Shown here piece after piece: positions 2,419 to 21,199 of a stretch of DNA of 33,798 bases. The DNA is from Bacillota bacterium (GTDB lineage Bacteria > Bacillota > Clostridia > Christensenellales > DTU072). Both the position numbers and the translations under genes were made by a program. Within the stretch, counting starts at the first letter, position 1, and every line of letters begins with the position of its first letter. The notes beneath the pieces were generated by a model. It was given only the letters and a program-made list of their open reading frames with translations. It did no database searches and was not told the origin of the DNA. The stretch covers positions 1 to 33,798 of the forward strand of contig JAWXUT010000004.1 in NCBI GenBank assembly GCA_044426075.1, read 5' to 3'.

Positions 2419-2754
2419 AAAAATTATTTGTGCTGCAACAGAATATAAATTTTTGACAGATTTTATTTTCATACGATTAAATTACAAAGTTTAAATTTTT
2501 ATTTCATAGGTTGGCAAAATTTTATATTCGCCAGTTTGGTATCTAATTCTAGCTATTTTGGTAGCCCGATAAAGAATTTTATGAAAAAGGATAAAATTTG
2601 CATTGCATATTAAATTACATAGCATTTTTGCTATTTACAGTTATATTTATATATTTACACATAAATCTAGCGCATTATTATGAGCAAAAATATCAACCAT
2701 AACACTAAGTTTCACATAAAATTCACAAAATTTTTATAAATTCATAAAAAGCTA

Positions 2755-2783
2755 TTGTGTTTTTTTTAAATTAGATATATAAT
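2755..2783 (+). promoter_or_regulatory. Candidate sigma-70 promoter for the zinc-ribbon/4-TM gene
   Basis: TTGTGT(2755-2760), 17 nt, TATAAT(2778-2783). The region is AT-rich, so chance matches are possible. Confidence 0.35.
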
Positions 2784-2847
2784 AGTAGTATATACTAGTG
2801 TGAAAACTGTTCAGCTAGTGCTTACACCGTTTTCAAGGAGAAATTTT

Positions 2848-3981
2848 ATGGAAAATTGTACAAGTGGTGCACAATTCGAAAATGAAACGCCAGAAGCAGC
2901 AAAATCTATGCTAGCTGAAGCGCAAGCAGCCTTCGACCAAGATGCAAAAGTTAGCGTCGACCGCAACAAGATCACATATGTTTGTGAGCTTTGTGCTTGC
3001 ATCAATTTAATTGATGAACCAAACTGCACCAAGTGCGGCAAACCTCGCCCACGTGCTGAGTTTGTTAATGCATTGCGTTCACTTAGAGATGGTGTTGATG
3101 CAAAAGCTGAGTTAGAAGCTAAGGCGGCAGAAGAGGCAAAACTTGCAGAAGAAGCAAAACTTGCAGAAGAAGCACGACTTGCAGAAGAAGCAGCTAAAGA
3201 AGCAGAGGCTCAAGCTAAAACGGAAGAAGTACAATTCTATCGTTATGAAGGCGCAGCTCCTGTTGTTCAACCACAAGCAGTACATCAACCTTTTGTAATT
3301 GTTCCATATGTTGATACTCATCAAAAATTATATCAATATCAACCAAGGCAAGCATTTCGCTTTGTTCCATACACTCCAGAAGAGTTGGCAGAGCAAGCTG
3401 CTCAACAAGCAGAAATGGATGCTGCAGAGTATTTAGAAATGAAAGCTGCTAACCAACAAGCTAGCAACGCTCAAACAGAAGAGCCTAAATGTTGCGGATT
3501 TAAAAAATCTTTGGTTGCAAGGGCAGTAGGTGCAAAAAATGCGGTTGTTGGCATTGCTACAATAGTATTAATGTTCTTCTTTGCTGTGTTTAGCGCAAAT
3601 GCGGATTCAAAGGGATTAGAAATATTTAAATCATTAGGAAACTGTTTTTCAGCTGCGGGCATTAGCTTAGGTTTTAGTTCAAGTACAGTTGCCTATGTTG
3701 ATTGGACATCTTGGATTGCTCCTATTAGTTATGCACTTATCGCAATTATTTCACTTATAGTTGTTATTGTTGGCGTTAAAAAGCTAATTACTGGCAAAGG
3801 TTGCGGCAAAGGTTGGTTGTTAAATCTATCATCTGTTATCGTAGCACTTGCAATGGGCGCGTTGTTGTACTTCTGTCAAGAGGGCTTTACATTTGCTTCA
3901 TTTGGCATCGGATACTTCATTACTTTAGGCTTGACAGCATTGTCAACACTAATCGCTATCTTTACACCTAGCTGTAAATAA
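2848..3981 (+). CDS. Uncharacterised membrane protein: zinc ribbon + AEEAKL coiled-coil repeat + degenerate S-type Pro/Val/Tyr motif + 4-TM M-type domain
   Basis: The track ORF starts at GTG 2800, but the in-frame ATG 2848 follows AAGGAG (2835-2840) by 7 nt. Zinc ribbon: CELC-x10-CTKC (nt 2983-3036). Coiled-coil repeat: (AEEAKL)n. S-type motif: VVQPQAVHQPFVIVPYVDTHQKLYQYQP and FRFVPYTPEE. Four long hydrophobic helices follow (AVVGIATIVLMFFFAVFSA, WIAPISYALIAIISLIVVIVGV, WLLNLSSVIVALAMGALLYF, FGIGYFITLGLTALSTLIAIF). Confidence 0.8.
   Translation: MENCTSGAQFENETPEAAKSMLAEAQAAFDQDAKVSVDRNKITYVCELCACINLIDEPNCTKCGKPRPRAEFVNALRSLRDGVDAKAELEAKAAEEAKLAEEAKLAEEARLAEEAAKEAEAQAKTEEVQFYRYEGAAPVVQPQAVHQPFVIVPYVDTHQKLYQYQPRQAFRFVPYTPEELAEQAAQQAEMDAAEYLEMKAANQQASNAQTEEPKCCGFKKSLVARAVGAKNAVVGIATIVLMFFFAVFSANADSKGLEIFKSLGNCFSAAGISLGFSSSTVAYVDWTSWIAPISYALIAIISLIVVIVGVKKLITGKGCGKGWLLNLSSVIVALAMGALLYFCQEGFTFASFGIGYFITLGLTALSTLIAIFTPSCK
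3127..3198 (+). repeat. In-frame 18-bp tandem repeat (about 4 units) encoding AEEAKL/AEEARL/AEEAAK
   Basis: gcagaagaggcaaaactt (3127-3144), gcagaagaagcaaaactt (3145-3162), gcagaagaagcacgactt (3163-3180), gcagaagaagcagctaaa (3181-3198). Confidence 0.9.
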
Positions 3982-4002
3982 TTAGAAAAACTTATTTTGA
4001 CT

Positions 4003-4031
4003 AAAGGATTGCATATGCAGTCCTTTTTTTT
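4003..4031 (+). terminator. Rho-independent terminator after the 2848..3981 gene
   Basis: aaaggattgca / tgcagtccttt stem (one G-U pair) with a short central loop, followed by a T8 run (4024-4031). Confidence 0.75.
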
Positions 4032-4063
4032 GCAAAAAAATACAAACTTTTTTATATTTGCTA

Positions 4064-4092
4064 TTGTAATCTGTAATATAATATGATATATT
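4064..4092 (+). promoter_or_regulatory. Candidate extended -10 promoter for the first S-M gene pair
   Basis: TTGTAA(4064-4069), 17 nt, TGaTATATT(4084-4092). Confidence 0.4.
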
Positions 4093-4172
4093 AATATAGT
4101 AGTGTAATTGGGATAATTTATTTATTACTACAAAAAAATGTTTCGCCTTTATGGCAAAAGTGGAGGTTACAT

Positions 4173-4424
4173 ATGTCAAAAAAATCAAAGAAAGCAAAGC
4201 AAGAAGCCTTAGAAGCTGAAGAACAAGCAAAGTTAGCAGCAGAAGCTCAAGCTGCCCCAAAATCGCCAAAAATAAGCTTTAGGGTTATGAATAACTGTGG
4301 CGTTGTTCCAGTAGCAAGACCAGCTGACTTTATCCAATTAACACCTATTGTTCAACCTATACCTTTAGTTCCATATAGCACTCAAGAGCAACCAGTGGCT
4401 CAGTTTGAAGACGAAGAAGAATAA
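4173..4424 (+). CDS. Small S-module protein 1 (83 aa): basic N-terminus, EA/Q-rich helix, conserved Pro/Val-rich core, acidic tail
   Basis: GGAGG (4162-4166) lies 6 nt before the ATG. Sequence: MSKKSKKAKQEALEAEEQAKLAAEAQA...SFRVMNNCGVVPVARPADFIQLTPIVQPIPLVPYSTQEQPVAQFEDEEE. The core is almost identical at protein level to the 5380 gene despite many synonymous DNA differences. Confidence 0.88.
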   Translation: MSKKSKKAKQEALEAEEQAKLAAEAQAAPKSPKISFRVMNNCGVVPVARPADFIQLTPIVQPIPLVPYSTQEQPVAQFEDEEE

Positions 4425-4445
4425 GCGTTTGTGGAGGAATAAGTT

Positions 4446-5135
4446 ATGGACAAATATTATATTGTTGACCCTGCAGAGCAAGCAAAGAACAGCACAAACA
4501 TAATTATTGGCAGCGATTCAATTTATTCTACAGCAATGAACGAGGCATATGCAGCAAGATTTGGCCGTCAAGCAATAAAGTATGCTGAGAAACAAGAAGA
4601 AGAGGTTGTGGCTGAACCTGAAATTACACAAGAAGTGGTTGAAGTAAAAGAAGTGGTAGTTGTTCGCAAAAACAAAGTTGCTATCATTATAACTATGTTA
4701 ACCGCATTGCTTACAATTGCGTTAGCCGTTGCAAGTTATCTAAATATTGAGGGACTTGCAACTTACACAGCTTACTATGCTTCAGCGGGCTTACAAAGTG
4801 CTATTGAAGTGTTTAGTTCGGGGGCAAGTATAACAGTAATATTGATTTATGCACTACTACTAGCATCAATTTTGTTTGCATTACTTACTTTTATTAGAGG
4901 CATCATTTTGTTGGCTTCCAAGAAGAAGAAAAAGTGCGCACTACTATTGCCACTATTGTTTTTAGTGATGATAATCGCAAGTGTAGCTATGTTCGTAATA
5001 GAGTATATGGCTACAACAGATATTATGCTACTCATTAATCCTTTTGAGGCAGATGCAATAGGAATAGCAGCTTATGCCACAATAGCATTTGCGTTAATTG
5101 CATTTATATCATCTTTATTCTCATACAAAAAATAA
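4446..5135 (+). CDS. M-module 4-TM membrane protein (229 aa), partner of S1
   Basis: GGAGGA RBS; 21 nt after the S1 stop. Soluble acidic N-terminus, then TM1 (VAIIITMLTALLTIALAVASYL), TM2, the basic loop SKKKKKC, TM3, TM4, and a basic C-terminus (YKK). Confidence 0.8.
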   Translation: MDKYYIVDPAEQAKNSTNIIIGSDSIYSTAMNEAYAARFGRQAIKYAEKQEEEVVAEPEITQEVVEVKEVVVVRKNKVAIIITMLTALLTIALAVASYLNIEGLATYTAYYASAGLQSAIEVFSSGASITVILIYALLLASILFALLTFIRGIILLASKKKKKCALLLPLLFLVMIIASVAMFVIEYMATTDIMLLINPFEADAIGIAAYATIAFALIAFISSLFSYKK

Positions 5136-5142
5136 TCAAATC

Positions 5143-5172
5143 AAACTGGCTTCCAACGAGGTCAGTTTTTTT
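5143..5172 (+). terminator. Rho-independent terminator after the first S-M pair
   Basis: 8-bp stem aaactggc / gtcagttt (one G-U pair), 10-nt loop, T-run to 5172. Confidence 0.6.
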
Positions 5173-5299
5173 ATGTGCAAAATTTGCGTTATGCAGTCAA
5201 CACTCTCTAGTAAAATAAAAGCAAACAGCAAGTTTGTTTGTTTTGTGAACGAGTTGTGATTAATTATGCTAAAAAATTAAAAAAAATATTGTTTTTATA

Positions 5300-5328
5300 T
5301 TGTAAATCATTAATATATATGTTACTAT
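5300..5328 (+). promoter_or_regulatory. Candidate extended -10 promoter for the second S-M pair
   Basis: TTGTAA(5300-5305), 17 nt, TGtTACTAT(5320-5328). Confidence 0.4.
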
Positions 5329-5379
5329 ATAAGTGCATAAAATAAAATCGCAATTTCCGCGATATATATGGAGGATATA

Positions 5380-5640
5380 ATGTCAAGAAAAAAGAGAAAA
5401 GCAGAAGAAGCAAGACTTGCAGCGGAAGCTCAAGCACAGCAAGAAGCGCAAGCTCAACAAGAGGTACAAGCATACAGAATGCCAAAAACCAGTTTTCGCG
5501 TTATGAATAACTGTGGAGTTGTTCCAGTTGCTAGACCTGCGGATTTTATACAATTGACACCAGTTGTACAACCTATTCCACTTGTTCCATACAGCACTCA
5601 AATGCAGCCTCTAGCTCAATTTGAAGAAGAAGAATATTAA
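5380..5640 (+). CDS. Small S-module protein 2 (86 aa)
   Basis: The track ORF starts at ATG 5368, but that ATG overlaps the GGAGG (5370-5374). ATG 5380 is correctly spaced and gives MSRKKRKAEE..., parallel to MSKKSKKAKQ of S1. C-terminus: SFRVMNNCGVVPVARPADFIQLTPVVQPIPLVPYSTQMQPLAQFEEEEY. Confidence 0.88.
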   Translation: MSRKKRKAEEARLAAEAQAQQEAQAQQEVQAYRMPKTSFRVMNNCGVVPVARPADFIQLTPVVQPIPLVPYSTQMQPLAQFEEEEY

Positions 5641-5742
5641 AAACATATTCATAAGATAATAAAATAGAGATGACTTTTAAGTTCAGTTTTAAACACTAAA
5701 ATAATGTGTTGTAGCTGAAGTGATTTTATAATGGAGGCAAAT

Positions 5743-6600
5743 ATGTATAATATTCAAAATGAACATTATAACTATGATGTAAGTGAAAAGGGTAAGGCAA
5801 CGCCTTATTTTAAAGCATATCTATCTGCTACAAACGAAAGGCCTTTTTATGAGGAACCGGTTGTGCCAGTAGTTGTAGATAACAGAAAAGAGCCTAAGCG
5901 CACATTTTTTGTATTAATGGTGGCGATATTGTCATTGTTAATAGTTGCAGTAGTGGGCTTGAGTTTTATGGGCATAATGCCAGAATACACCGCTTTATTC
6001 GGCCAACAAACAGACGAAATTGTTGGTGAAGAGTATGACGAGCCTGCTGATGAAATAGTTGCAGAAGCAGCTACAGCAGAAGACGTAACAGATGGCTCAG
6101 AAACGGATACAGAAACCGAAGAAGAGAGCGTTGAATATGTGTATGCAAAAATAAGTGCCGATGATATAATAAACAGCACGCTAAAAATGTTGGGCATTAT
6201 TGAAACAGAAGAAGAATTGGTATTTTATTCAGAGTGTTTAGCCAATATCGAATTGGTTGAGACCACAGCGCTTATCGCTTACTATGCATTGCCAGCAGCA
6301 ATTGCTTTAACTGCAATTATAGCGCTTTATATCTTTATCAAATCAATATTTGCTTTGTTTAGCGCAAAGAGACGTAAATTCAGCTATATTTCATTATTGT
6401 TACTATTGGTGAGTTTGCTAGGTATTGTTGCGGGCTTGGTTTGGAATGCAGAACCATTGTCAAGCGTACTATCATTCTTTATGATGTCGGGAACAAATTT
6501 AGTACTTGGATTGGGTTATATAATCGTTATTGTACTAGAAATTTTGCTACTAATATGCTCAATGTTCGCCTATCGTAGCAAGAAGAAGGCAAAATATTAG
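5743..6600 (+). CDS. M-module 4-TM membrane protein (285 aa) with an acidic ecto-loop
   Basis: ATG 5743 follows GGAGG (5733-5737); the track start 5731 overlaps the RBS. TM1 is FFVLMVAILSLLIVAVVGLSFMGIMPEYTALFG, followed by a D/E/T-rich segment, then three more TM helices with the basic loop SAKRRK and the C-terminus RSKKKAKY. Clear paralog of the 6940 gene. Confidence 0.8.
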   Translation: MYNIQNEHYNYDVSEKGKATPYFKAYLSATNERPFYEEPVVPVVVDNRKEPKRTFFVLMVAILSLLIVAVVGLSFMGIMPEYTALFGQQTDEIVGEEYDEPADEIVAEAATAEDVTDGSETDTETEEESVEYVYAKISADDIINSTLKMLGIIETEEELVFYSECLANIELVETTALIAYYALPAAIALTAIIALYIFIKSIFALFSAKRRKFSYISLLLLLVSLLGIVAGLVWNAEPLSSVLSFFMMSGTNLVLGLGYIIVIVLEILLLICSMFAYRSKKKAKY

Positions 6601-6624
6601 TAAAACTTTTAGCGCAAATAGGGT

Positions 6625-6652
6625 GGTGGATTAATTTCCACTTACTCTTTTT
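6625..6652 (+). terminator. Weak candidate terminator after the second S-M pair
   Basis: ggtgga / tccact 6-bp stem (one G-U pair), loop ttaatt. The T-run (6648-6652) sits 5 nt from the stem, which is suboptimal. Confidence 0.3.
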
Positions 6653-6707
6653 GGTGTCTATATGGTAAAAATTGATAATAATTTTTGAACAAATTAGTAA
6701 ATAGCTC

Positions 6708-6736
6708 TTGTAATTTTTTGCGTAGTATGTTAAACT
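6708..6736 (+). promoter_or_regulatory. Candidate extended -10 promoter for the five-gene unit 6940..10525
   Basis: TTGTAA(6708-6713), 17 nt, TGtTAAACT(6728-6736). This would give a 5' UTR of ~200 nt. Confidence 0.35.
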
Positions 6737-6939
6737 ATATAATATTATATTATAAGACGCGGGGAGAAAGCGCACGCAGTGCAATTTCGGTTAGTTAGTG
6801 TAATATATCGGTGTTATTGCTAGTTCGGCTAGCTAAATGCAAAGCATTTGTAGATTTAGTAACTTGTTAGTAAGTCAGTAACACGCAGAATGTACAAGTA
6901 AAAGTTATATTTTAATAATTACAAGTTGAGGGAGAGTCA

Positions 6940-8097
6940 ATGGCAAACCAACCATCTAAAGTTAATAATAAAGTAGCGGCTTCGCCATATTACGCAAATT
7001 ATATGGCAAATAAGGGTAATGCAAACCAAAGTAGCGCCGGAAGACCTATGCAAAGGGTTCCTATGAGCACTCCTTACTATGGTGCAGCACCTATGATGGC
7101 GCCTCAACAAACCGTTAGGCCTGCCGCTAAATCAGCAGCAAAGTCAACCGTTAAACCAATGCCACAATATACAGAAAAGCAAGCTAAAAAAATCGAAAGA
7201 CAAAGAAAAAGACAAAGTTCACACTTCTTTGTAATGCGTAAAGGCGTTTGCTTCTTGATGTTTATTTGTTCATTGTTGGTTGTAGCGATGTTGGCATTGA
7301 GCTTTTTAGAAATTATGCCAAGTTTCACATCAATATACGCTATTCCAGATAACACACCACTTGATGAACGTGTTGCTGCTGATAGTTTAGAAGACGATTT
7401 AGATATCTCTAACGCTGCTAGTGATGAAGTTGCAGAAGATGACGCGCTTACAGAAGATGAGTTGTTGAGCGATGTTTATGTTGACGCTACTGAATACGTA
7501 GGTGTTGCAGATTTAATATACGGACTTGCAAACGGAATGTTTGCGTTAGGTTTGGTTGATGAAGAGGGTGTTAGCCTTTCAATCGCCTACGACGAGACAT
7601 TGGCAAGTATCCAAGCAGTTGCGCTAGAATATCCAGAAGATAGTATGGCTTCAATTGCAGCTATGATGTATGAATATATGCCACTTGCAATCGCAGTGCT
7701 TGCAGTTGTTGCAATTATTAGTTTGATAATGAGCTTTTTCGCTTTGTTTGGCAGACGAATATTTAAGGGATTTGGTTTGATGGGAATTATAATGACATTG
7801 TGTTCGGTTGTAGTTTTCATTGCGGGTCTTGCAACGCTAGGGCTTATGAACGGCAATCCAGTTTTCGCAGAAGACGGTACAATAACAAGTTTACTTGATT
7901 TCAGCCAACTAAGCGGATTCTTAACCAGAATAATATCAAGTGCACCAGCAACCGCACTAGATCCATTAGTAGATATAATGCCAGTTGTGTACTGCGCGGG
8001 TATCGGAATGTTAGCTATATTAGTAGCACCAATATTACAAATCGTGCTATCAATATTTGCAAGGCGCAAATTACCTTACAGTATTTTTGATAAGTAA
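6940..8097 (+). CDS. M-module 4-TM membrane protein (385 aa) with a P/Y/Q/A-rich N-terminal region and an acidic ecto-loop
   Basis: GAGGGAG RBS. The TM1 region FFVMRKGVCFLMFICSLLVVAMLALSFLEIMPSFTSIYA aligns with the 5743 protein. The TM2 region EYMPLAIAVLAVVAIISLIMSFFALFGRRIFK aligns with YALPAAIALTAIIALYIFIKSIFALFSAKRRK. Confidence 0.8.
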   Translation: MANQPSKVNNKVAASPYYANYMANKGNANQSSAGRPMQRVPMSTPYYGAAPMMAPQQTVRPAAKSAAKSTVKPMPQYTEKQAKKIERQRKRQSSHFFVMRKGVCFLMFICSLLVVAMLALSFLEIMPSFTSIYAIPDNTPLDERVAADSLEDDLDISNAASDEVAEDDALTEDELLSDVYVDATEYVGVADLIYGLANGMFALGLVDEEGVSLSIAYDETLASIQAVALEYPEDSMASIAAMMYEYMPLAIAVLAVVAIISLIMSFFALFGRRIFKGFGLMGIIMTLCSVVVFIAGLATLGLMNGNPVFAEDGTITSLLDFSQLSGFLTRIISSAPATALDPLVDIMPVVYCAGIGMLAILVAPILQIVLSIFARRKLPYSIFDK

Positions 8098-8114
8098 ACA
8101 TTAGGAGGGATAAT

Positions 8115-8384
8115 ATGTTTAATAGTAAACGTAAAAAAATAGAGAAACAAATGGCAATTGAAGCCGAAATGCAAGCTCGTATTAATAATGAAGCTGCACT
8201 TGTTGAGGCAAATTCACCTAAACAACCTCGTGCTTCTGTAAGATTAATGCATAACTGTGGTCCAGTGCCAATAGCACCTCCTTCAGATTTCATTCAACTT
8301 ACACCAATTGTACAACCTATCCCACTTGTTCCATATAGCACTCAAAGCCAACCACTTGTGATGTTTGACGAGTTCGAAGATTAA
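8115..8384 (+). CDS. Small S-module protein 3 (89 aa)
   Basis: AGGAGGG RBS; 17 nt after the upstream stop. Sequence: MFNSKRKKIEKQMAIEAEMQAR...SVRLMHNCGPVPIAPPSDFIQLTPIVQPIPLVPYSTQSQPLVMFDEFED. Confidence 0.88.
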   Translation: MFNSKRKKIEKQMAIEAEMQARINNEAALVEANSPKQPRASVRLMHNCGPVPIAPPSDFIQLTPIVQPIPLVPYSTQSQPLVMFDEFED

Positions 8385-8410
8385 TTGATCTTTGGGAGGA
8401 AATAGACATA

Positions 8411-9139
8411 ATGCAAAAAGCACAGTCAATAAATTCCTATATGGCAGACTCAAATAGTGATGTTGTTCAAGTTTCTAAAGGCGGTGGCGTACCAGTTTCA
8501 CCTATTGCGGTTACACAATACGTTACTCCTATTGTTTCTGTTGGTGCAATGGCACCATATCATCTCAAAGGGCAACCCGCTTTAGTTGAGCCAAACTACT
8601 TTGATGAAATGGCAGAAGATGCTGTTTCAACAGAAGAAGTCGTTGCTGTTGAATGTAGTGATAAAATTCGCAAAAGAGGATGTAGTTTTTCTTCTTTACT
8701 TGCAATCATATTGGCAATTGCTACTGTGTTTGCGCTAGTAGCGGGTAAATACATAAATAGCATTGCAGAGTATTGTGCTATTGCTGATGGTTCAATAGGA
8801 TATACTTATATTGAATCATTAATAAACAACATTACCAGCGGTGTTGTATTGAGCGCAGAAAATATTATTCCACTTTGCGTGGCATTAATAGCAGTGTGCA
8901 GCATATTGACAATTATCGCTTGTGTTATTAAATTAGGCTATAAAGGGGTTTGTATATTTGCAAAAATTACCATACTTCTTACGCTAGCAAGTTGTGGCGT
9001 TGCGTTAGGTTACGCAATTGGTACAGGGATTGCTGTTGATATTTGCCTATATGTTATATGTGGTATTACTTTTATACAAAGCGTTGTTGCGTTATGTGTA
9101 AAAAGATATAAAAATTGTAAAAAAGAAATTAAAGCTTAG
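8411..9139 (+). CDS. Fusion protein: degenerate S motif + M-module 4-TM domain (242 aa)
   Basis: GGGAGGA RBS. The N-terminus GGGVPVSPIAVTQYVTPIVSVGAMAPYHLKGQPALVEPNYFDE resembles the S core. It is followed by RKRGCSF-TM1 and three further TM helices, with the basic C-terminus KRYKNCKKEIKA. Confidence 0.8.
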   Translation: MQKAQSINSYMADSNSDVVQVSKGGGVPVSPIAVTQYVTPIVSVGAMAPYHLKGQPALVEPNYFDEMAEDAVSTEEVVAVECSDKIRKRGCSFSSLLAIILAIATVFALVAGKYINSIAEYCAIADGSIGYTYIESLINNITSGVVLSAENIIPLCVALIAVCSILTIIACVIKLGYKGVCIFAKITILLTLASCGVALGYAIGTGIAVDICLYVICGITFIQSVVALCVKRYKNCKKEIKA

Positions 9140-9170
9140 TTTAAACTGAAGAGGGATTAAGGAGAGCCGT

Positions 9171-9560
9171 ATGAATAGAAAAAAATCAAAAAAATGTTGC
9201 CAACCTGCAGTTGCTGAAACTTGTGCTCCAGTACAAGAACAACGCAGACCAGCGGTTGCTGTTGCAACAAATATGCCTTTTGCGCAACAATCACAACAAG
9301 CAGCATATATGCCAAACGCAAGTCAATTTGCAGTTATGGGCAACGCAATGCCTATGGGATTAGCTCAATACAATTCTGTTGATGAGTATGGCCGAGTTTA
9401 TAGTCCAATAATGAGTTATGGCCCACAACCAAACAGCGCACCAGTGCCAGTTGCAATTCCATCACAAATTGTACAATTGACACCAATAGTAGCCCCTGTT
9501 TCATTTGTACCATATGCAACACAAAACCAAGGCTTGTATCAATTTGAAGAAGAGATTTAA
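9171..9560 (+). CDS. Small S-module protein 4 (129 aa), longer Q/M/A/P-rich middle
   Basis: AAGGAGAG RBS. N-terminus: MNRKKSKKCC. C-terminus: APVPVAIPSQIVQLTPIVAPVSFVPYATQNQGLYQFEEEI. Confidence 0.85.
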   Translation: MNRKKSKKCCQPAVAETCAPVQEQRRPAVAVATNMPFAQQSQQAAYMPNASQFAVMGNAMPMGLAQYNSVDEYGRVYSPIMSYGPQPNSAPVPVAIPSQIVQLTPIVAPVSFVPYATQNQGLYQFEEEI

Positions 9561-9577
9561 ACAAAGGGAGAAGTTTA

Positions 9578-10525
9578 ATGGAAAACAATACTAACAACAT
9601 CGGTCTACAATCAAATCAAGGCGCACAGCAATCACAAGGTAAGTGGGTAGCTGTTGATGCCAATACTGTAGGCAATATTCCTACCGATATCGCAGCCAAT
9701 CAACCTTTTCAAGGTGCTGATGGCGCTATGTACTGTATGGGTGAACCACAACAAGCACTTGCTCAAATTAACAGCAATGTTACGCAAAACGCAGTGCCAG
9801 TTCCTTCCTCAATAGTGCAAATGCCACCTATCGTGCAACCTATTGCATTGGTGCCATTTACATCACAAAATCAACCATTATTGCAATATGATCCATATTC
9901 AAGGCCAGTAGAACCTCAAGTTCAACCAGCTCAACCAGAATATAAACTAAATCCTTACAAAGGCAACAGCCTTGCTGCTATGCTTTTAGGAATTGTATCA
10001 TTGGTGCTAGTACTATTCTTGTCAATGGCGAACTTTGCAGAAACAGCTTCTGTTGCAGCATATAGCTCTAACGGATTAGATATGATATTTGCAGTGCTTG
10101 CATATTTCGGTCTTGGTGTTTCAAGTTCATACTACACTGGCAATATTGAACCAAACCTAGATTCAATGTCTTCTGACATAATGAGTGCAATTATTGTTTT
10201 TGCTGTACCAGTTTGCATAATTGTTATAGCGTTAATAACATTAATTCTTGTTATCAAGAACCTAGTTAAATTAGCAAAAGGTGTTTCACCAAAATGCTTC
10301 AGCATAGGTGCACTAGTTAATATAATATTGATTGTTGCTGTACTTGGATTCTTGCTAGGTATGAACAATGCAGCTGAGGGCGAAATGAATATCGCTGGAT
10401 TCTTTAGCAGAAGTTCTAGCATTTACTGGGGAATTGGTCTTGCTGTAGCATTAGTATTAAATATAGTACATATTATAATAGTAGCTCTTCCAAAGAAAAA
10501 CAATTATATTGAAATCAACAAATAA
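9578..10525 (+). CDS. Fusion protein: S motif + M-module 4-TM domain (315 aa)
   Basis: AGGGAGAAG RBS. The N-terminal half contains AVPVPSSIVQMPPIVQPIALVPFTSQNQPLLQYDPY. Then come TM1 (LAAMLLGIVSLVLVLFLSMANF), TM2, the loop KLAKGVSPKC, TM3, TM4 and the C-terminus PKKNNYIEINK. Confidence 0.82.
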   Translation: MENNTNNIGLQSNQGAQQSQGKWVAVDANTVGNIPTDIAANQPFQGADGAMYCMGEPQQALAQINSNVTQNAVPVPSSIVQMPPIVQPIALVPFTSQNQPLLQYDPYSRPVEPQVQPAQPEYKLNPYKGNSLAAMLLGIVSLVLVLFLSMANFAETASVAAYSSNGLDMIFAVLAYFGLGVSSSYYTGNIEPNLDSMSSDIMSAIIVFAVPVCIIVIALITLILVIKNLVKLAKGVSPKCFSIGALVNIILIVAVLGFLLGMNNAAEGEMNIAGFFSRSSSIYWGIGLAVALVLNIVHIIIVALPKKNNYIEINK

Positions 10526-10551
10526 AAAATAACAAATACAGACTAAAAGGG

Positions 10552-10591
10552 TGGTGCGGTTTTGAATTTACAGAACAGCACCATTATTTTT
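10552..10591 (+). terminator. Rho-independent terminator (or attenuator) closing the S/M array
   Basis: 13-bp stem tggtgcggttttg / cagaacagcacca (1 mismatch, 1 G-U pair), 6-nt loop, then ttattttt. Confidence 0.7.
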
Positions 10592-10606
10592 AAAAAGGAG
10601 TTTATA

Positions 10607-10840
10607 ATGATAGAAGAAAAAGTTAAATTAGCAATTGCAGACCAATTGGGAATAGAGGCGTCAGATATCAAGCTAGAAGATGAATTGATTGCAGATTTAA
10701 ATGCAGATTCATTGGATATTGTACAATTATTGATGGAAATTGAAGTGGAATATGGCATCGAATTTGATGATAATTCTGATAGTGTTAAAAACATAAAAAC
10801 AGTACAAGACGTAGTAAATTTCATCAGTTCAAAAAACTAA
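10607..10840 (+). CDS. acpP: Acyl carrier protein (77 aa), not next to fab/pls genes
   Basis: AAGGAG (10595-10600) lies 6 nt before ATG 10607; the track start 10562 is inside the terminator hairpin. DLNADSLDIVQLLMEIEVEYGIEF matches the AcpP phosphopantetheine-attachment region (DSLD). Confidence 0.8.
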   Translation: MIEEKVKLAIADQLGIEASDIKLEDELIADLNADSLDIVQLLMEIEVEYGIEFDDNSDSVKNIKTVQDVVNFISSKN

Positions 10841-10879
10841 TATAAAATTAATAAAAATAGAGTTTTATGTGAAAATTGA

Positions 10880-10908
10880 TTGACAATGCACGGCGCTTAT
10901 GATATATT
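10880..10908 (+). promoter_or_regulatory. Promoter of rpmG-secE-nusG
   Basis: TTGACA(10880-10885), 17 nt, TGaTATATT(10900-10908). Confidence 0.6.
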
Positions 10909-10992
10909 ATATAAGCATCCTTGCATAGGGGTGTAATTTTTTGTGAAAGAATAAACACGAACCATACTGGCTAACGCCAAACGGAGGTATAC

Positions 10993-11160
10993 ATGAGCAG
11001 CGCTAAAAAAGACAAAAAGAAGATTACTCTTGCTTGCACAGAGTGCAAACAACGTAACTATGATAGCACTAAAAACAGCAAAAATGATCCAGAAAGAATG
11101 GAGTTAAACAAATATTGCCGTTTTTGCAAAAAACACACAGCCCATAAAGAAACCAAATAA
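10993..11160 (+). CDS. rpmG: 50S ribosomal protein L33 (55 aa; below the ORF-track length cut-off)
   Basis: Hand translation: [55 protein letters not shown]. It has the C-x2-C...C-x2-C zinc-type L33 pattern, a GGAGG RBS, and the canonical position upstream of secE. Confidence 0.85.
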
Positions 11161-11172
11161 GGGAGATTTATT

Positions 11173-11523
11173 ATGGCAAAAAACAACAAATTGACACTTC
11201 AAGTTAGCGATGCTGACGGAATACAACAAACTCAAGTTGAGAAGAAAGCACAAGATGCTCCTAAAAAGCAAAAACCATCAAAAGGTGGCAAAAAGCAATC
11301 TCAACAAAAGTTAAATTTCTTCCAACGCATAGCTAAATCTTTTAGAGAGATAGTATCTGAGTTAAAGAAAGTTGATTGGCCACCAATGAAAAAGAGCAAA
11401 AACAATCCTGGCGTTTTACCAAACACCAGTACAGTTTTAGTAGTTGTATTGTTCTTTATGGTTTTAATAACAGCTTTTGACGCAGGCTTAGCAGCATTGC
11501 TAAAGCTACTAACTACAGTTTAG
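11173..11523 (+). CDS. secE: Preprotein translocase subunit SecE with a ~55-aa Lys/Gln-rich N-terminal extension
   Basis: FFQRIAKSFREIVSELKKVDWP followed by a single TM helix (VLVVVLFFMVLITAF); located between rpmG and nusG. Confidence 0.8.
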   Translation: MAKNNKLTLQVSDADGIQQTQVEKKAQDAPKKQKPSKGGKKQSQQKLNFFQRIAKSFREIVSELKKVDWPPMKKSKNNPGVLPNTSTVLVVVLFFMVLITAFDAGLAALLKLLTTV

Positions 11524-14550: not shown

Positions 14551-14850
14551 TTATTTTAAGCGCGTTTTGCATTTTGTGCGCATCATATTATCTTGCACAA
14601 AAATAGAAGTTGCTCCGCAGCGGTTGTTTGAATTATACTGGCATTCTGCGTGGCATTGCACAGTTGCAGGAGCATCTTGCAGAAACTCATCACTTGCTTC
14701 AAGTTCGGCAAAAGTTTGTTCTAATGCACCACCAGCGCGCTTAATTTTACTTTGGCACTGCGCTTTATCATTAAATACAACCACCCCCGCATTGCAGTGT
14801 GATTTCAAATTATGTTGACAGTTTATTGTATTGCATTTTAATTGATTCAT
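14551..14850 (-). CDS. Cys-rich protein with two DUF1540-like repeats (99 aa)
   Basis: GAGGTG RBS. Two copies of the C-x3-C-x-[HY]-N-x4-C-x-A pattern (CNTINCQHNLKSHCNAGVVVF and CHAECQYNSNNRCGATSIFV). I recognise this as the Firmicute DUF1540 pattern. Confidence 0.6.
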   Translation of the reverse strand: MNQLKCNTINCQHNLKSHCNAGVVVFNDKAQCQSKIKRAGGALEQTFAELEASDEFLQDAPATVQCHAECQYNSNNRCGATSIFVQDNMMRTKCKTRLK

Positions 14851-20300: not shown

Positions 20301-21199
20301 TAGAAGTTCACTTAGGTCTAGTAGCAAATATGCTTGGATTTAAAGTTGCAACTCCAGTTTTCGACGGTGCGTCTGAAAATGATATTAAAGAGTTGTTTGA
20401 ACAAAATAACCTACCAAACAATGGTAAATTGCAATTGTTTGACGGCAGAACCGGTGAACCATTTGAAAACACAGTTACAGTTGGATATATGTATATGCTA
20501 AAACTTATCCACTTGGTTGATGACAAAATTCACGCTCGTTCAGTTGGACCATACAGTTTGGTTACACAACAACCTTTGGGTGGTAAAGCTCAATTTGGTG
20601 GACAACGTTTCGGTGAGATGGAAGTTTGGGCATTGGAAGCATATGGTGCTGCTAATATCCTACAAGAAGTTCTTACAGTTAAGTCAGATGACGTTATGGG
20701 TCGCCAAAAGATATTCGATAGCATTATGAAACAAAATGTTACAGCAGAACCTGGTTTACCAGAGGCATTTAAAGTTCTTAAAAAAGAGATGCAAAGTTTG
20801 TGCTTAGAGATTAAACTTCTAAATGAAGGAAGTGAAGAAGTTACTCTTGGTGACAGCTACGATGACGATAAAGAGTTCGTTTCATCTGCAACTAAGAGCA
20901 GTGAAGAGGTTGTTGATGTATTCGGTGGCGAAGCTAGCGACATTGGTGACAGCGCGTTTGGCGGATTGTTCGGTGACGACGACGCAGACGATGATGCACT
21001 AGGCGGATTGTTCGGCAGTCTTGCTGGTGAAGGTGGATTGCTAGGTGACGACTTCGATGATGACTTTATGGATAAAGACGACATTTTTGAAGACGACACA
21101 GAAAGCGATTTAGAAGATGATTACGAGTCAGAGGACGATTACAACGGAGTAGAAGCTCTACTACAAGGTGAGTTCGACGATGACGACTCAAACAATTAG
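17327..21199 (+). CDS. rpoB: DNA-directed RNA polymerase subunit beta, with a ~125-aa hyperacidic C-terminal extension
   Basis: ATG 17327 follows AAGGAG (17313-17318) by 8 nt; the track start GTG 17279 is unsupported. The sequence carries canonical beta-subunit motifs throughout (e.g. [36 protein letters not shown]). Confidence 0.97.

Follow-up and report, generated by a model that had tools for sequence, protein, structure and literature searches.

The stretch of DNA analysed here (the window) comprises 33,798 nucleotides (nt) of a bacterial chromosome with a GC content of 38.6% (Bacillota bacterium, Christensenellales, DTU072; assembly GCA_044426075.1, contig JAWXUT010000004.1, positions 1 to 33,798 of the forward strand). 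It contains an array of ten co-oriented genes (2848-10525), which encode, among others, small proteins (designated S), membrane proteins (designated M) and a fusion protein (F5), and the window holds five copies of one proline-rich peptide. Two of the small genes, S1 and S2, almost certainly encode real, strongly constrained small proteins. The middle and C-terminal part of these proteins is held almost invariant by purifying selection acting at the amino-acid level. What is selected is a proline-rich stretch of approximately 33-45 residues rather than a folded domain or the whole protein; divergence is tolerated in the N-terminal part of S and in the partner membrane proteins. The best explanation overall, to which a probability of about one half was assigned, is that these constrained small proteins carry the docking peptide of one membrane-associated system.

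Selection on the S1 and S2 cores

The 37-codon cores of S1 and S2 (4275-4385 and 5491-5601, respectively) both translate to SFRVMNNCGVVPVARPADFIQLTP[I/V]VQPIPLVPYSTQ. Twenty codons are identical, 16 differ only synonymously, and one is non-synonymous (ATT/GTT, I/V). The counts of 16 and one given in the initial annotation of this region were reproduced exactly, including the same 16 codon pairs; its start of the S2 core at 5490 was one base off, in a frame full of stops, and was corrected to 5491. The nucleotide identity of the cores is 83%, and of the 19 differences among 111 nucleotides, 16 are located at third, three at first and none at second codon positions. The numbers of non-synonymous and synonymous substitutions per site (dN and dS) obtained for the cores by NG86 were 0.036 and 1.27 (ratio 0.03), and LWL85 gave a dN/dS ratio of 0.09; for the full genes, dN was 0.21 and dS was 1.10. 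Thus, purifying selection on the peptide, which had previously been proposed from the codon pattern, was borne out by formal core ratios far below 1 (approximately 0.03-0.09 at a dS of approximately 1). When 19 substitutions with the same mix of transitions and transversions were placed at random in 200,000 simulation runs, the mean number of amino-acid changes was 13, the minimum was 6, and a value of one or less was reached in none of the runs (0/200,000).

Comparison with an orthologue, another check suggested at the outset, led to the same result. Between S2 and its positional orthologue on a related metagenomic contig (L068), 22 synonymous changes and one non-synonymous change were found in 44 codons. 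The residues diagnostic of S1 and of S2 (TPIV…EQP versus TPVV…MQPL) were both kept in the L068 orthologues. Therefore, the two genes have not been homogenised since that split, in agreement with the earlier claim that recent gene conversion was not involved.

Among 109 S genes, residues P12, A14, P16, I20, Q39 and P40, which lie outside the motif search pattern (Q[LM][TPS]P[IV][VI]xP[ILV]xx[IV]P[YF]), were conserved at 94-100%, and the conserved positions outside the pattern were written with most or all of the synonymous codons; for columns within the pattern, invariance is partly built in by construction. The invariant residues of S1 are Q55, P58, P62, P67 and Y68.

The possibility that a nucleic-acid feature (a conserved RNA element, a repeat at the DNA level or recent gene conversion) lies behind the similarity of S1 and S2 is negligible. 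Nothing speaks for it beyond the 83% identity of the cores. The placement of the differences at third and never at second codon positions speaks against it, as do the longest shared identical run of 17 bases and the finding that orthologues in genomes of differing GC content keep the peptide and not the nucleotides. No alternative reading frame is preserved or open in both cores, and the antisense frames contain stops. The similarity of the flanks was marginal upstream (a score of 35 versus a shuffle maximum of 39) and absent downstream; because the flanks are not clearly alike, there is no evidence of a duplicated promoter or spacer. The core RNAs folded no better than shuffled sequences (z = 0.09 and -1.05) and into two different structures. 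A search of Rfam with region 2500-11200 returned only HIV_GSL3 and PhrS, both below their gathering scores and outside the S genes. As far as sequence analysis can go, this explanation is excluded, and the initial annotation was right in arguing against a nucleotide-level repeat or RNA element.

The peptide family and its carriers

The conserved peptide, approximately 33-45 residues in length, has the form …VPVxxPxDFIQLTP[IV]VQPxxxVPYSTQxQP…. In S proteins, a lysine-rich start (MSKK…) is followed by a variable A/E/Q-rich stretch that is predicted to be helical, by the core and by an acidic tail, commonly with an aromatic residue at its end; most copies share a conserved cysteine. The 162 proteins found with a profile built from the five cores of the window are 49-86 amino acids long and have nearly identical cores; all are unnamed or "hypothetical" and come from metagenome-assembled genomes of Christensenellales/Clostridia. 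An exhaustive HMMER scan found only 159 clusters among 1.84 billion cluster representatives. Scanning of GTDB with one genome per species yielded 63 loci, again all in metagenome-assembled Christensenellales/Clostridia genomes (Candidatus Stercoripulliclostridium, Christensenellaceae, Christensenellales and the like); judging from the record names, their apparent sources are the guts of chicken, sheep, goat and deer, possibly termite gut, and anaerobic digesters. The family is narrow and belongs to one uncultured Clostridia clade. With more than 160 homologues and more than 60 species-level genomes encoding the same peptide, the earlier view that these small open reading frames (ORFs) are real, constrained proteins was confirmed.

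The family is also undescribed: nothing matching it was found among curated families, solved structures, RNA families or papers. The S profile had no match among PDB sequences, nothing near the cut-offs of Pfam-A and NCBIfam was obtained for any of the ten array proteins (best E-values of 3e-4 to 1, low-complexity matches), and a full-text literature search for the peptide string QLTPIVQP returned no paper. The kinds of protein that the array products resemble, namely tetraspan membrane proteins and linear-motif adaptors, are already known.

The motif occurs one to five times per locus (two to five in most), always on one strand, either in small soluble proteins (63-140 amino acids) or ahead of four or five membrane helices. 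Three settings of the peptide were observed: free small proteins, the cytoplasmic N-terminus of tetraspan proteins and the C-terminal end of soluble zinc-ribbon proteins. In the natural fusions, the peptide is cytoplasmic and is located 25-60 residues before the first membrane helix. The soluble zinc-ribbon carriers contain several zinc ribbons and …YQMPPIVQPVAFVPYVTQ[DE]QPL[LM]QY… near the C-terminus, and M-type genes follow downstream; at locus L071, such a carrier is followed by a membrane protein and then by a peptide-bearing membrane protein. A tetraspan gene almost always lies directly downstream of an S gene: an ORF with at least three predicted membrane helices follows within 400 nt in 96 of 104 cases. 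Peptide carriers and tetraspan domains have therefore been fused and separated repeatedly, a classic sign of parts working together.

A second tail motif, [ST]PY[YF]xx[YF]xxA (e.g., ATPYFKAY and ASPYYANY), was found in tetraspans without the S peptide (window positions 5743-5830 and 6940-7010; loci L001 and L004-L020). Of the membrane proteins of the loci, 58 have it, whereas all 81 that carry the S peptide lack it; the two kinds of tail thus look mutually exclusive. In F5 and all of its homologues, a mini-element, GxWVxVD…GxDGxxYCxG, precedes the peptide (window positions 9638-9745, F5 residues ~21-56). Its residues G21, W23, D48, G49 and Y52 are invariant, and it was modelled with a predicted local distance difference test score (pLDDT) of approximately 80-85. 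S4 and the zinc-ribbon proteins have a shorter version (DEYGRVY, GPDGEPY) ahead of their peptide. That the F5 mini-element is WW-like and a candidate receptor for the …VPY peptide is only an idea.

The S-M unit is expanded in some lineages (L009, L014, L020, L022 and L027). One metagenome-assembled genome (L009 and L022) has six S genes, and another (L014, L020 and L027) has eight motif-bearing genes, seven of which encode small S proteins. The expanded copies are spread over several contigs and have near-identical cores, with a very different membrane protein after each.

Divergence of the membrane partners

Within loci, the S cores had a median identity of 82%, and the partner M proteins one of 28%. 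When the window was compared with L068, the amino-acid identity was 0.79 for S2 (43/44 in the core), 0.73 for S1 and 0.72 for S3, versus 0.65 for Mx, 0.61 for M2, 0.48 for M3 and 0.43 for M1. A very asymmetric constraint within the S-M module had been suggested from the greater divergence of M1 and M2 than of S1 and S2. The asymmetry holds in the like-for-like comparison of the window with L068, but the original comparison does not stand, as it mixes genes of different ages. M1 and M2 gave no mutual BLASTP match. They are much older paralogues that belong to separate orthologous groups and did not arise in the duplication that produced S1 and S2; because they are far older, setting S1/S2 against M1/M2 is confounded by age.

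In the more distant genome represented by L001, the same array is present with a slightly different gene order. The orthologue of M2 there is a protein of 282 amino acids (E = 2e-60) without an S gene upstream, and M1 also has an orthologue (E = 1e-12). M1 is weakly similar to other membrane proteins of the array; a single homologue, distant and lacking annotation, was detectable for it among 5.8 billion proteins, versus the 162 matches of the S-core profile. For F5, 127 homologues were found. In a neighbour-joining tree, the S paralogues grouped by lineage, a result that is indicative only owing to the short sequences.

Structure predictions

In the AlphaFold model of F5 (69 homologues), the membrane domain had a pLDDT of 90-98, and the peptide (residues ~59-105) had a value below 50. 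Four helices (128-147, 201-234, 243-267 and 286-303; pLDDT above 90) were predicted, with strands 149-153 and 162-165 after helix 1, a small cytoplasmic sheet to which the segment preceding helix 1 and the C-terminal tail contribute, and a basic loop, KLAKGVSPK, between helices 2 and 3. The lysine-rich N-terminus of S1 is predicted to be helical: its AlphaFold model (44 homologues) has a helix at residues 3-25, and the rest is coil (pLDDT 67; predicted template modelling score, 0.23).

When the F5 model was compared with the PDB using Foldseek, the top match was LetA (9n8w_A; E = 0.048, probability 0.66), followed by TARP gamma-2 (E = 0.13), claudin-19 (E = 0.31) and MP20 (E = 0.37; target-normalised template modelling score, TM-score, 0.48). 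None of the matches was significant (E of at least 0.048, TM-scores of 0.17-0.48). No match to viral structures was found using Foldseek. A profile of the 69 F5 homologues had no match among PDB sequences, with LetA absent at E up to 10, and Pfam PqiA (PF04403) gave no match at E up to 1.

Organisation of the array and its chromosomal context

The features of the array are listed in Table 1. A GGAGG-type ribosome-binding site is located ahead of every array gene, and the start of S2 was set at 5380 because the ribosome-binding site points to that ATG. S1 and S2 are each paired with a membrane-protein gene in a bicistronic unit that ends in a terminator-like structure. M1 starts 21 nt downstream of the S1 stop, and the distances from S to M genes are 17-102 nt. 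The first array gene has orthologues in L068 (62% identity) and L001 (32% identity, E = 2e-45; a weak match to Pfam Zn_Ribbon_1).

Table 1. Positions of the array features in the window
Feature	Position	Strand	Remarks
First array gene	2848..3981	+	ORF listed from GTG 2800; AAGGAG ahead of ATG 2848
Promoter-like site upstream of S1 (TTGTAA, 17-nt spacer, TATATT, extended TG)	4064..4092	+	Consensus match only
S1, 83 amino acids; basic N-terminal helix (predicted), proline-rich core, acidic tail	4173..4424	+	GGAGG 6 nt upstream of ATG
S1 core, 37 codons	4275..4385	+	
M1, fast-evolving multi-pass membrane protein, 229 amino acids	4446..5135	+	GGAGGA ribosome-binding site
Terminator-like hairpin and T-run closing the S1-M1 unit	5143..5168	+	
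S2, paralogue of S1, 86 amino acids	5380..5640	+	ORF opens at 5368; GGAGG 5 nt upstream of ATG 5380
S2 core, 37 codons	5491..5601	+	
M2, tetraspan membrane protein, 285 amino acids; N-terminal tail motif ATPYFKAY, long acidic external loop	5743..6600	+	
Terminator-like hairpin after M2	6625..6642	+	
Mx, tetraspan paralogue, 385 amino acids; SPYY-type N-terminal tail, no S gene immediately upstream	6940..8097	+	
S3, small protein with the same core, 89 amino acids	8115..8384	+	Orthologous group other than that of S1/S2
M3, membrane protein, 242 amino acids; N-terminal tail with a degenerate peptide copy	8411..9139	+	
S4, soluble protein, 129 amino acids; C-terminal peptide (…IVQLTPIVAPVSFVPYATQNQGLYQFEEEI)	9171..9560	+	L001 orthologue 64% identical
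F5, natural fusion of the peptide (residues ~66-105) and a tetraspan membrane domain, 315 amino acids; last array gene	9578..10525	+	

The 102-nt spacer between S2 and M2 (5641-5742) was predicted to fold into a more stable structure than shuffled sequences (z = -2.64; equalled by 3 of 200 shuffles); the corresponding spacer in L068 is only 35 nt long. A leader of approximately 220 nt (6720-6939), for which there was no Rfam match at the gathering score, lies between a promoter-like AT-rich stretch and the start of Mx.

In five lineages, the array is located between gltX/glnS (in the window, an MFS_2 transporter gene) and the rpmG-secE-nusG-rplKAJ cluster. In the window, the genes downstream of it are rpmG, secE, nusG, rplK, rplA, rplJ, rplL, rpoB and rpoC. 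The array is inherited vertically, as a chromosomal locus of stable position, and is not a mobile element. Toxin-antitoxin, holin and defence roles were rejected, as the locus is syntenic and vertically inherited and no profile of such a kind matched; PADLOC gave no match, and all PHROGs matches had E-values of at least 0.015 and covered low-complexity stretches only.

Between the array and rpmG lies a gene for an acyl-carrier-protein-like product of 77 amino acids (10607-10840; PP-binding, E = 4e-10), with no fatty-acid or polyketide genes nearby. A cysteine-rich ORF of 99 amino acids with a DUF1540 match (14551-14850, minus strand; E = 5e-5) is located between rplL and rplI. Since a DUF1540 gene is also found beside the L9 and IspDF genes in L001 and L008, gene order is conserved in the wider neighbourhood as well. 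The RpoB protein of the window (1306 amino acids) has a C-terminal tail of approximately 130 residues (20800-21199), almost entirely D, E and G with scattered F and L and ending in …DDDDSNN, which is unusual for RpoB.

Proposed role of the peptide and alternative explanations

According to the preferred explanation, the peptide would be a docking motif that becomes ordered only when bound, and it would be shared by the free and membrane-tethered subunits of one membrane-associated system. The S proteins would be soluble subunits that operate together with the tetraspans on the cytoplasmic side of the membrane. Every copy of the peptide would have to fit one slowly evolving, conserved partner, and paralogues and orthologues would therefore keep its sequence while their surroundings drift. 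The fast-evolving tetraspans with their variable external loops would provide diversity, and the peptide would be the constant connection.

Docking as the mechanism of the peptide, taken by itself, is tentative, and several points weigh against it. Low AlphaFold confidence would also be expected of a segment that is merely hard to model. The invariant stretch of 33-45 residues is long for a classical short linear motif, and the peptide could act otherwise, through self-association, in the nascent chain or as a substrate of modification. In addition, the tetraspan fold rests on one model and on Foldseek matches that were not significant (E of at least 0.048, TM-scores of at most 0.48). More doubtful still is the wider proposal of a new bacterial membrane system, in which fast-diverging tetraspans with a claudin/TARP/LetA-like topology would be linked by one near-invariant peptide, present in cis on their tails or supplied in trans by small proteins, to a conserved hub.

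An unlikely alternative is self-assembly, in which the peptide copies would bind one another, so that S proteins, zinc-ribbon proteins and tetraspan tails would form a hetero-oligomeric membrane scaffold, and the paralogues would remain identical since all copies must stay mutually compatible. The many copies per genome (five in the window and at least eight over the three contigs L014, L020 and L027) and the conservation of the ten-gene array as a unit would fit this explanation, as would lineage variants common to S and M copies, such as QPV in L027 and QPL in L011 and L017. However, these shared variants are conservative I/L/V swaps, with exceptions in L016, L021 and L048. Five to seven prolines in approximately 33 residues make a regular pairing of sheets or helices unlikely, and the peptide is paired with nothing in the F5 model. 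It is less probable that the array encodes LetA-like transport modules with S as an accessory subunit. LetA, whose module has been described as a zinc ribbon plus a TARP/claudin-related membrane domain (PMC13017536), was the first Foldseek match of F5, ahead of TARP, claudin and MP20, but the TM-scores of just 0.17-0.48 and the lack of any profile match to Pfam PqiA (E up to 1) or to PDB sequences argue against this assignment, and no mammalian cell entry (MCE) gene of the LetB/PqiB type was found in or beside the array.

That S is a leader or arrest peptide of the SecM/MifM kind, controlling translation of the downstream membrane gene, appears highly improbable. Such a role could be suggested by the position of the small ORF 17-102 nt upstream of a membrane-protein gene, by conservation concentrated in the last ~45 residues and by the proline-rich composition with an acidic tail end; MifM stalls at an acidic cluster, and selection at the amino-acid level is expected for arrest peptides. 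Nevertheless, S lacks a signal peptide or membrane segment through which export could be sensed (no predicted membrane helices), its partners are not Sec or YidC components, and the S1-M1 junction is unstructured (z = +0.94), hence without a hairpin masking the ribosome-binding site. The chance that S is a bacteriocin or the precursor of a ribosomally synthesised and post-translationally modified peptide, with M as an immunity or export partner, is smaller still. Several small paralogous genes, each beside a gene for a small multi-pass membrane protein, the cysteine conserved in most copies and a radical-SAM gene downstream of the array in L001 would be in line with it, but the radical-SAM neighbour is not conserved, and no modifying enzyme, protease or ABC exporter gene was found in or beside the window array. 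Moreover, a leader and a double-glycine signal are both lacking in S, whose two ends are charged and hydrophilic; the locus resembles housekeeping loci in its conserved synteny, PADLOC and PHROGs yielded nothing, and membrane proteins bear this peptide as a fusion on their cytoplasmic tails.

By itself, the codon statistic of the initial annotation would describe an ordinary case, a small gene under purifying selection. The added interest lies in a multi-copy peptide with three architectures, in partners that have diverged beyond recognition and in a fixed locus. The selected unit is a reusable peptide rather than a domain or a whole protein, and the array offers an unusually clean natural experiment, as a peptide of approximately 40 residues has persisted while synonymous sites became saturated, in multiple paralogues of a genome and across three architectures. 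The array fills a "hypothetical" block of ten genes at a fixed chromosomal position in widespread uncultured gut and digester Clostridia, and the peptide could be used as a ready-made bait for finding partners. If the wider proposal were true, the system would be the bacterial equivalent of the tetraspan-plus-scaffold webs of eukaryotes and would be restricted to uncultured gut and digester Christensenellales. If the relation of the tetraspans to LetA, claudins and TARPs were real, that fold would be extended into Firmicutes with a new kind of cytoplasmic adaptor.

Comparison with known systems

The LetA/PqiA module consists of a zinc ribbon and a tetraspanin-like membrane domain (Nature 2026, PMC13017536). 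As in the array, modules are encoded fused or as adjacent split genes, and LetA is the best, though weak, structural match of F5. However, sequence matches of the array proteins to Pfam PqiA or PDB sequences are lacking, and the linkers in the array are long and bear a proline-rich peptide not described for LetA. No MCE partner (LetB/PqiB) was found in the window array or among the neighbours of L001, L008, L029, L049, L054 and L071, four of these loci having been judged from ORF lists and N-terminal sequences instead of by scanning each ORF against Pfam. Nothing comparable to the free small S subunits has been described for LetA, and the array hosts are Clostridia, whereas those of LetA are Proteobacteria.

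SecM, MifM and VemP resemble S in that a small ORF precedes a membrane-related gene, amino-acid conservation is C-terminal, and the end is acidic. In contrast to them, S lacks an export signal, and no hydrophobic segment is present in any S protein of up to 112 residues. The genes downstream of S do not encode translocon components, and the S motif also occurs inside long proteins. The structure of the S2-M2 spacer (z = -2.64) is not shared by S1-M1, which, as noted above, has no hairpin masking the ribosome-binding site.

Claudins, TARPs and PMP22/MP20 proteins fill most of the Foldseek list of F5. The likeness is one of topology and not proof of homology: the termini of F5 are predicted to be inside, and the model has four helices, a first external loop containing strands and a basic loop between helices 2 and 3. 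The matches were not significant (E of 0.13-0.8). F5 does not have the W-GLW-C-C signature of claudins, because its first external loop contains no tryptophan or cysteine. The ligand of claudins and TARPs is a C-terminal PDZ-binding tail, whereas that of the array is N-terminal or resides on a separate protein. In concept, nevertheless, the arrangement is similar, since variable membrane proteins are joined to a constant cytoplasmic ligand.

To our knowledge, motif-domain systems of the SH3/WW/EVH1 kind are poorly documented in bacteria. With 33-45 residues, the array peptide greatly exceeds typical ligands of these domains in length, and its conservation is also far higher. It is like them, however, in being an extended proline-rich peptide that is disordered alone and reused on different carriers, with selection acting on the peptide and not on the carriers.

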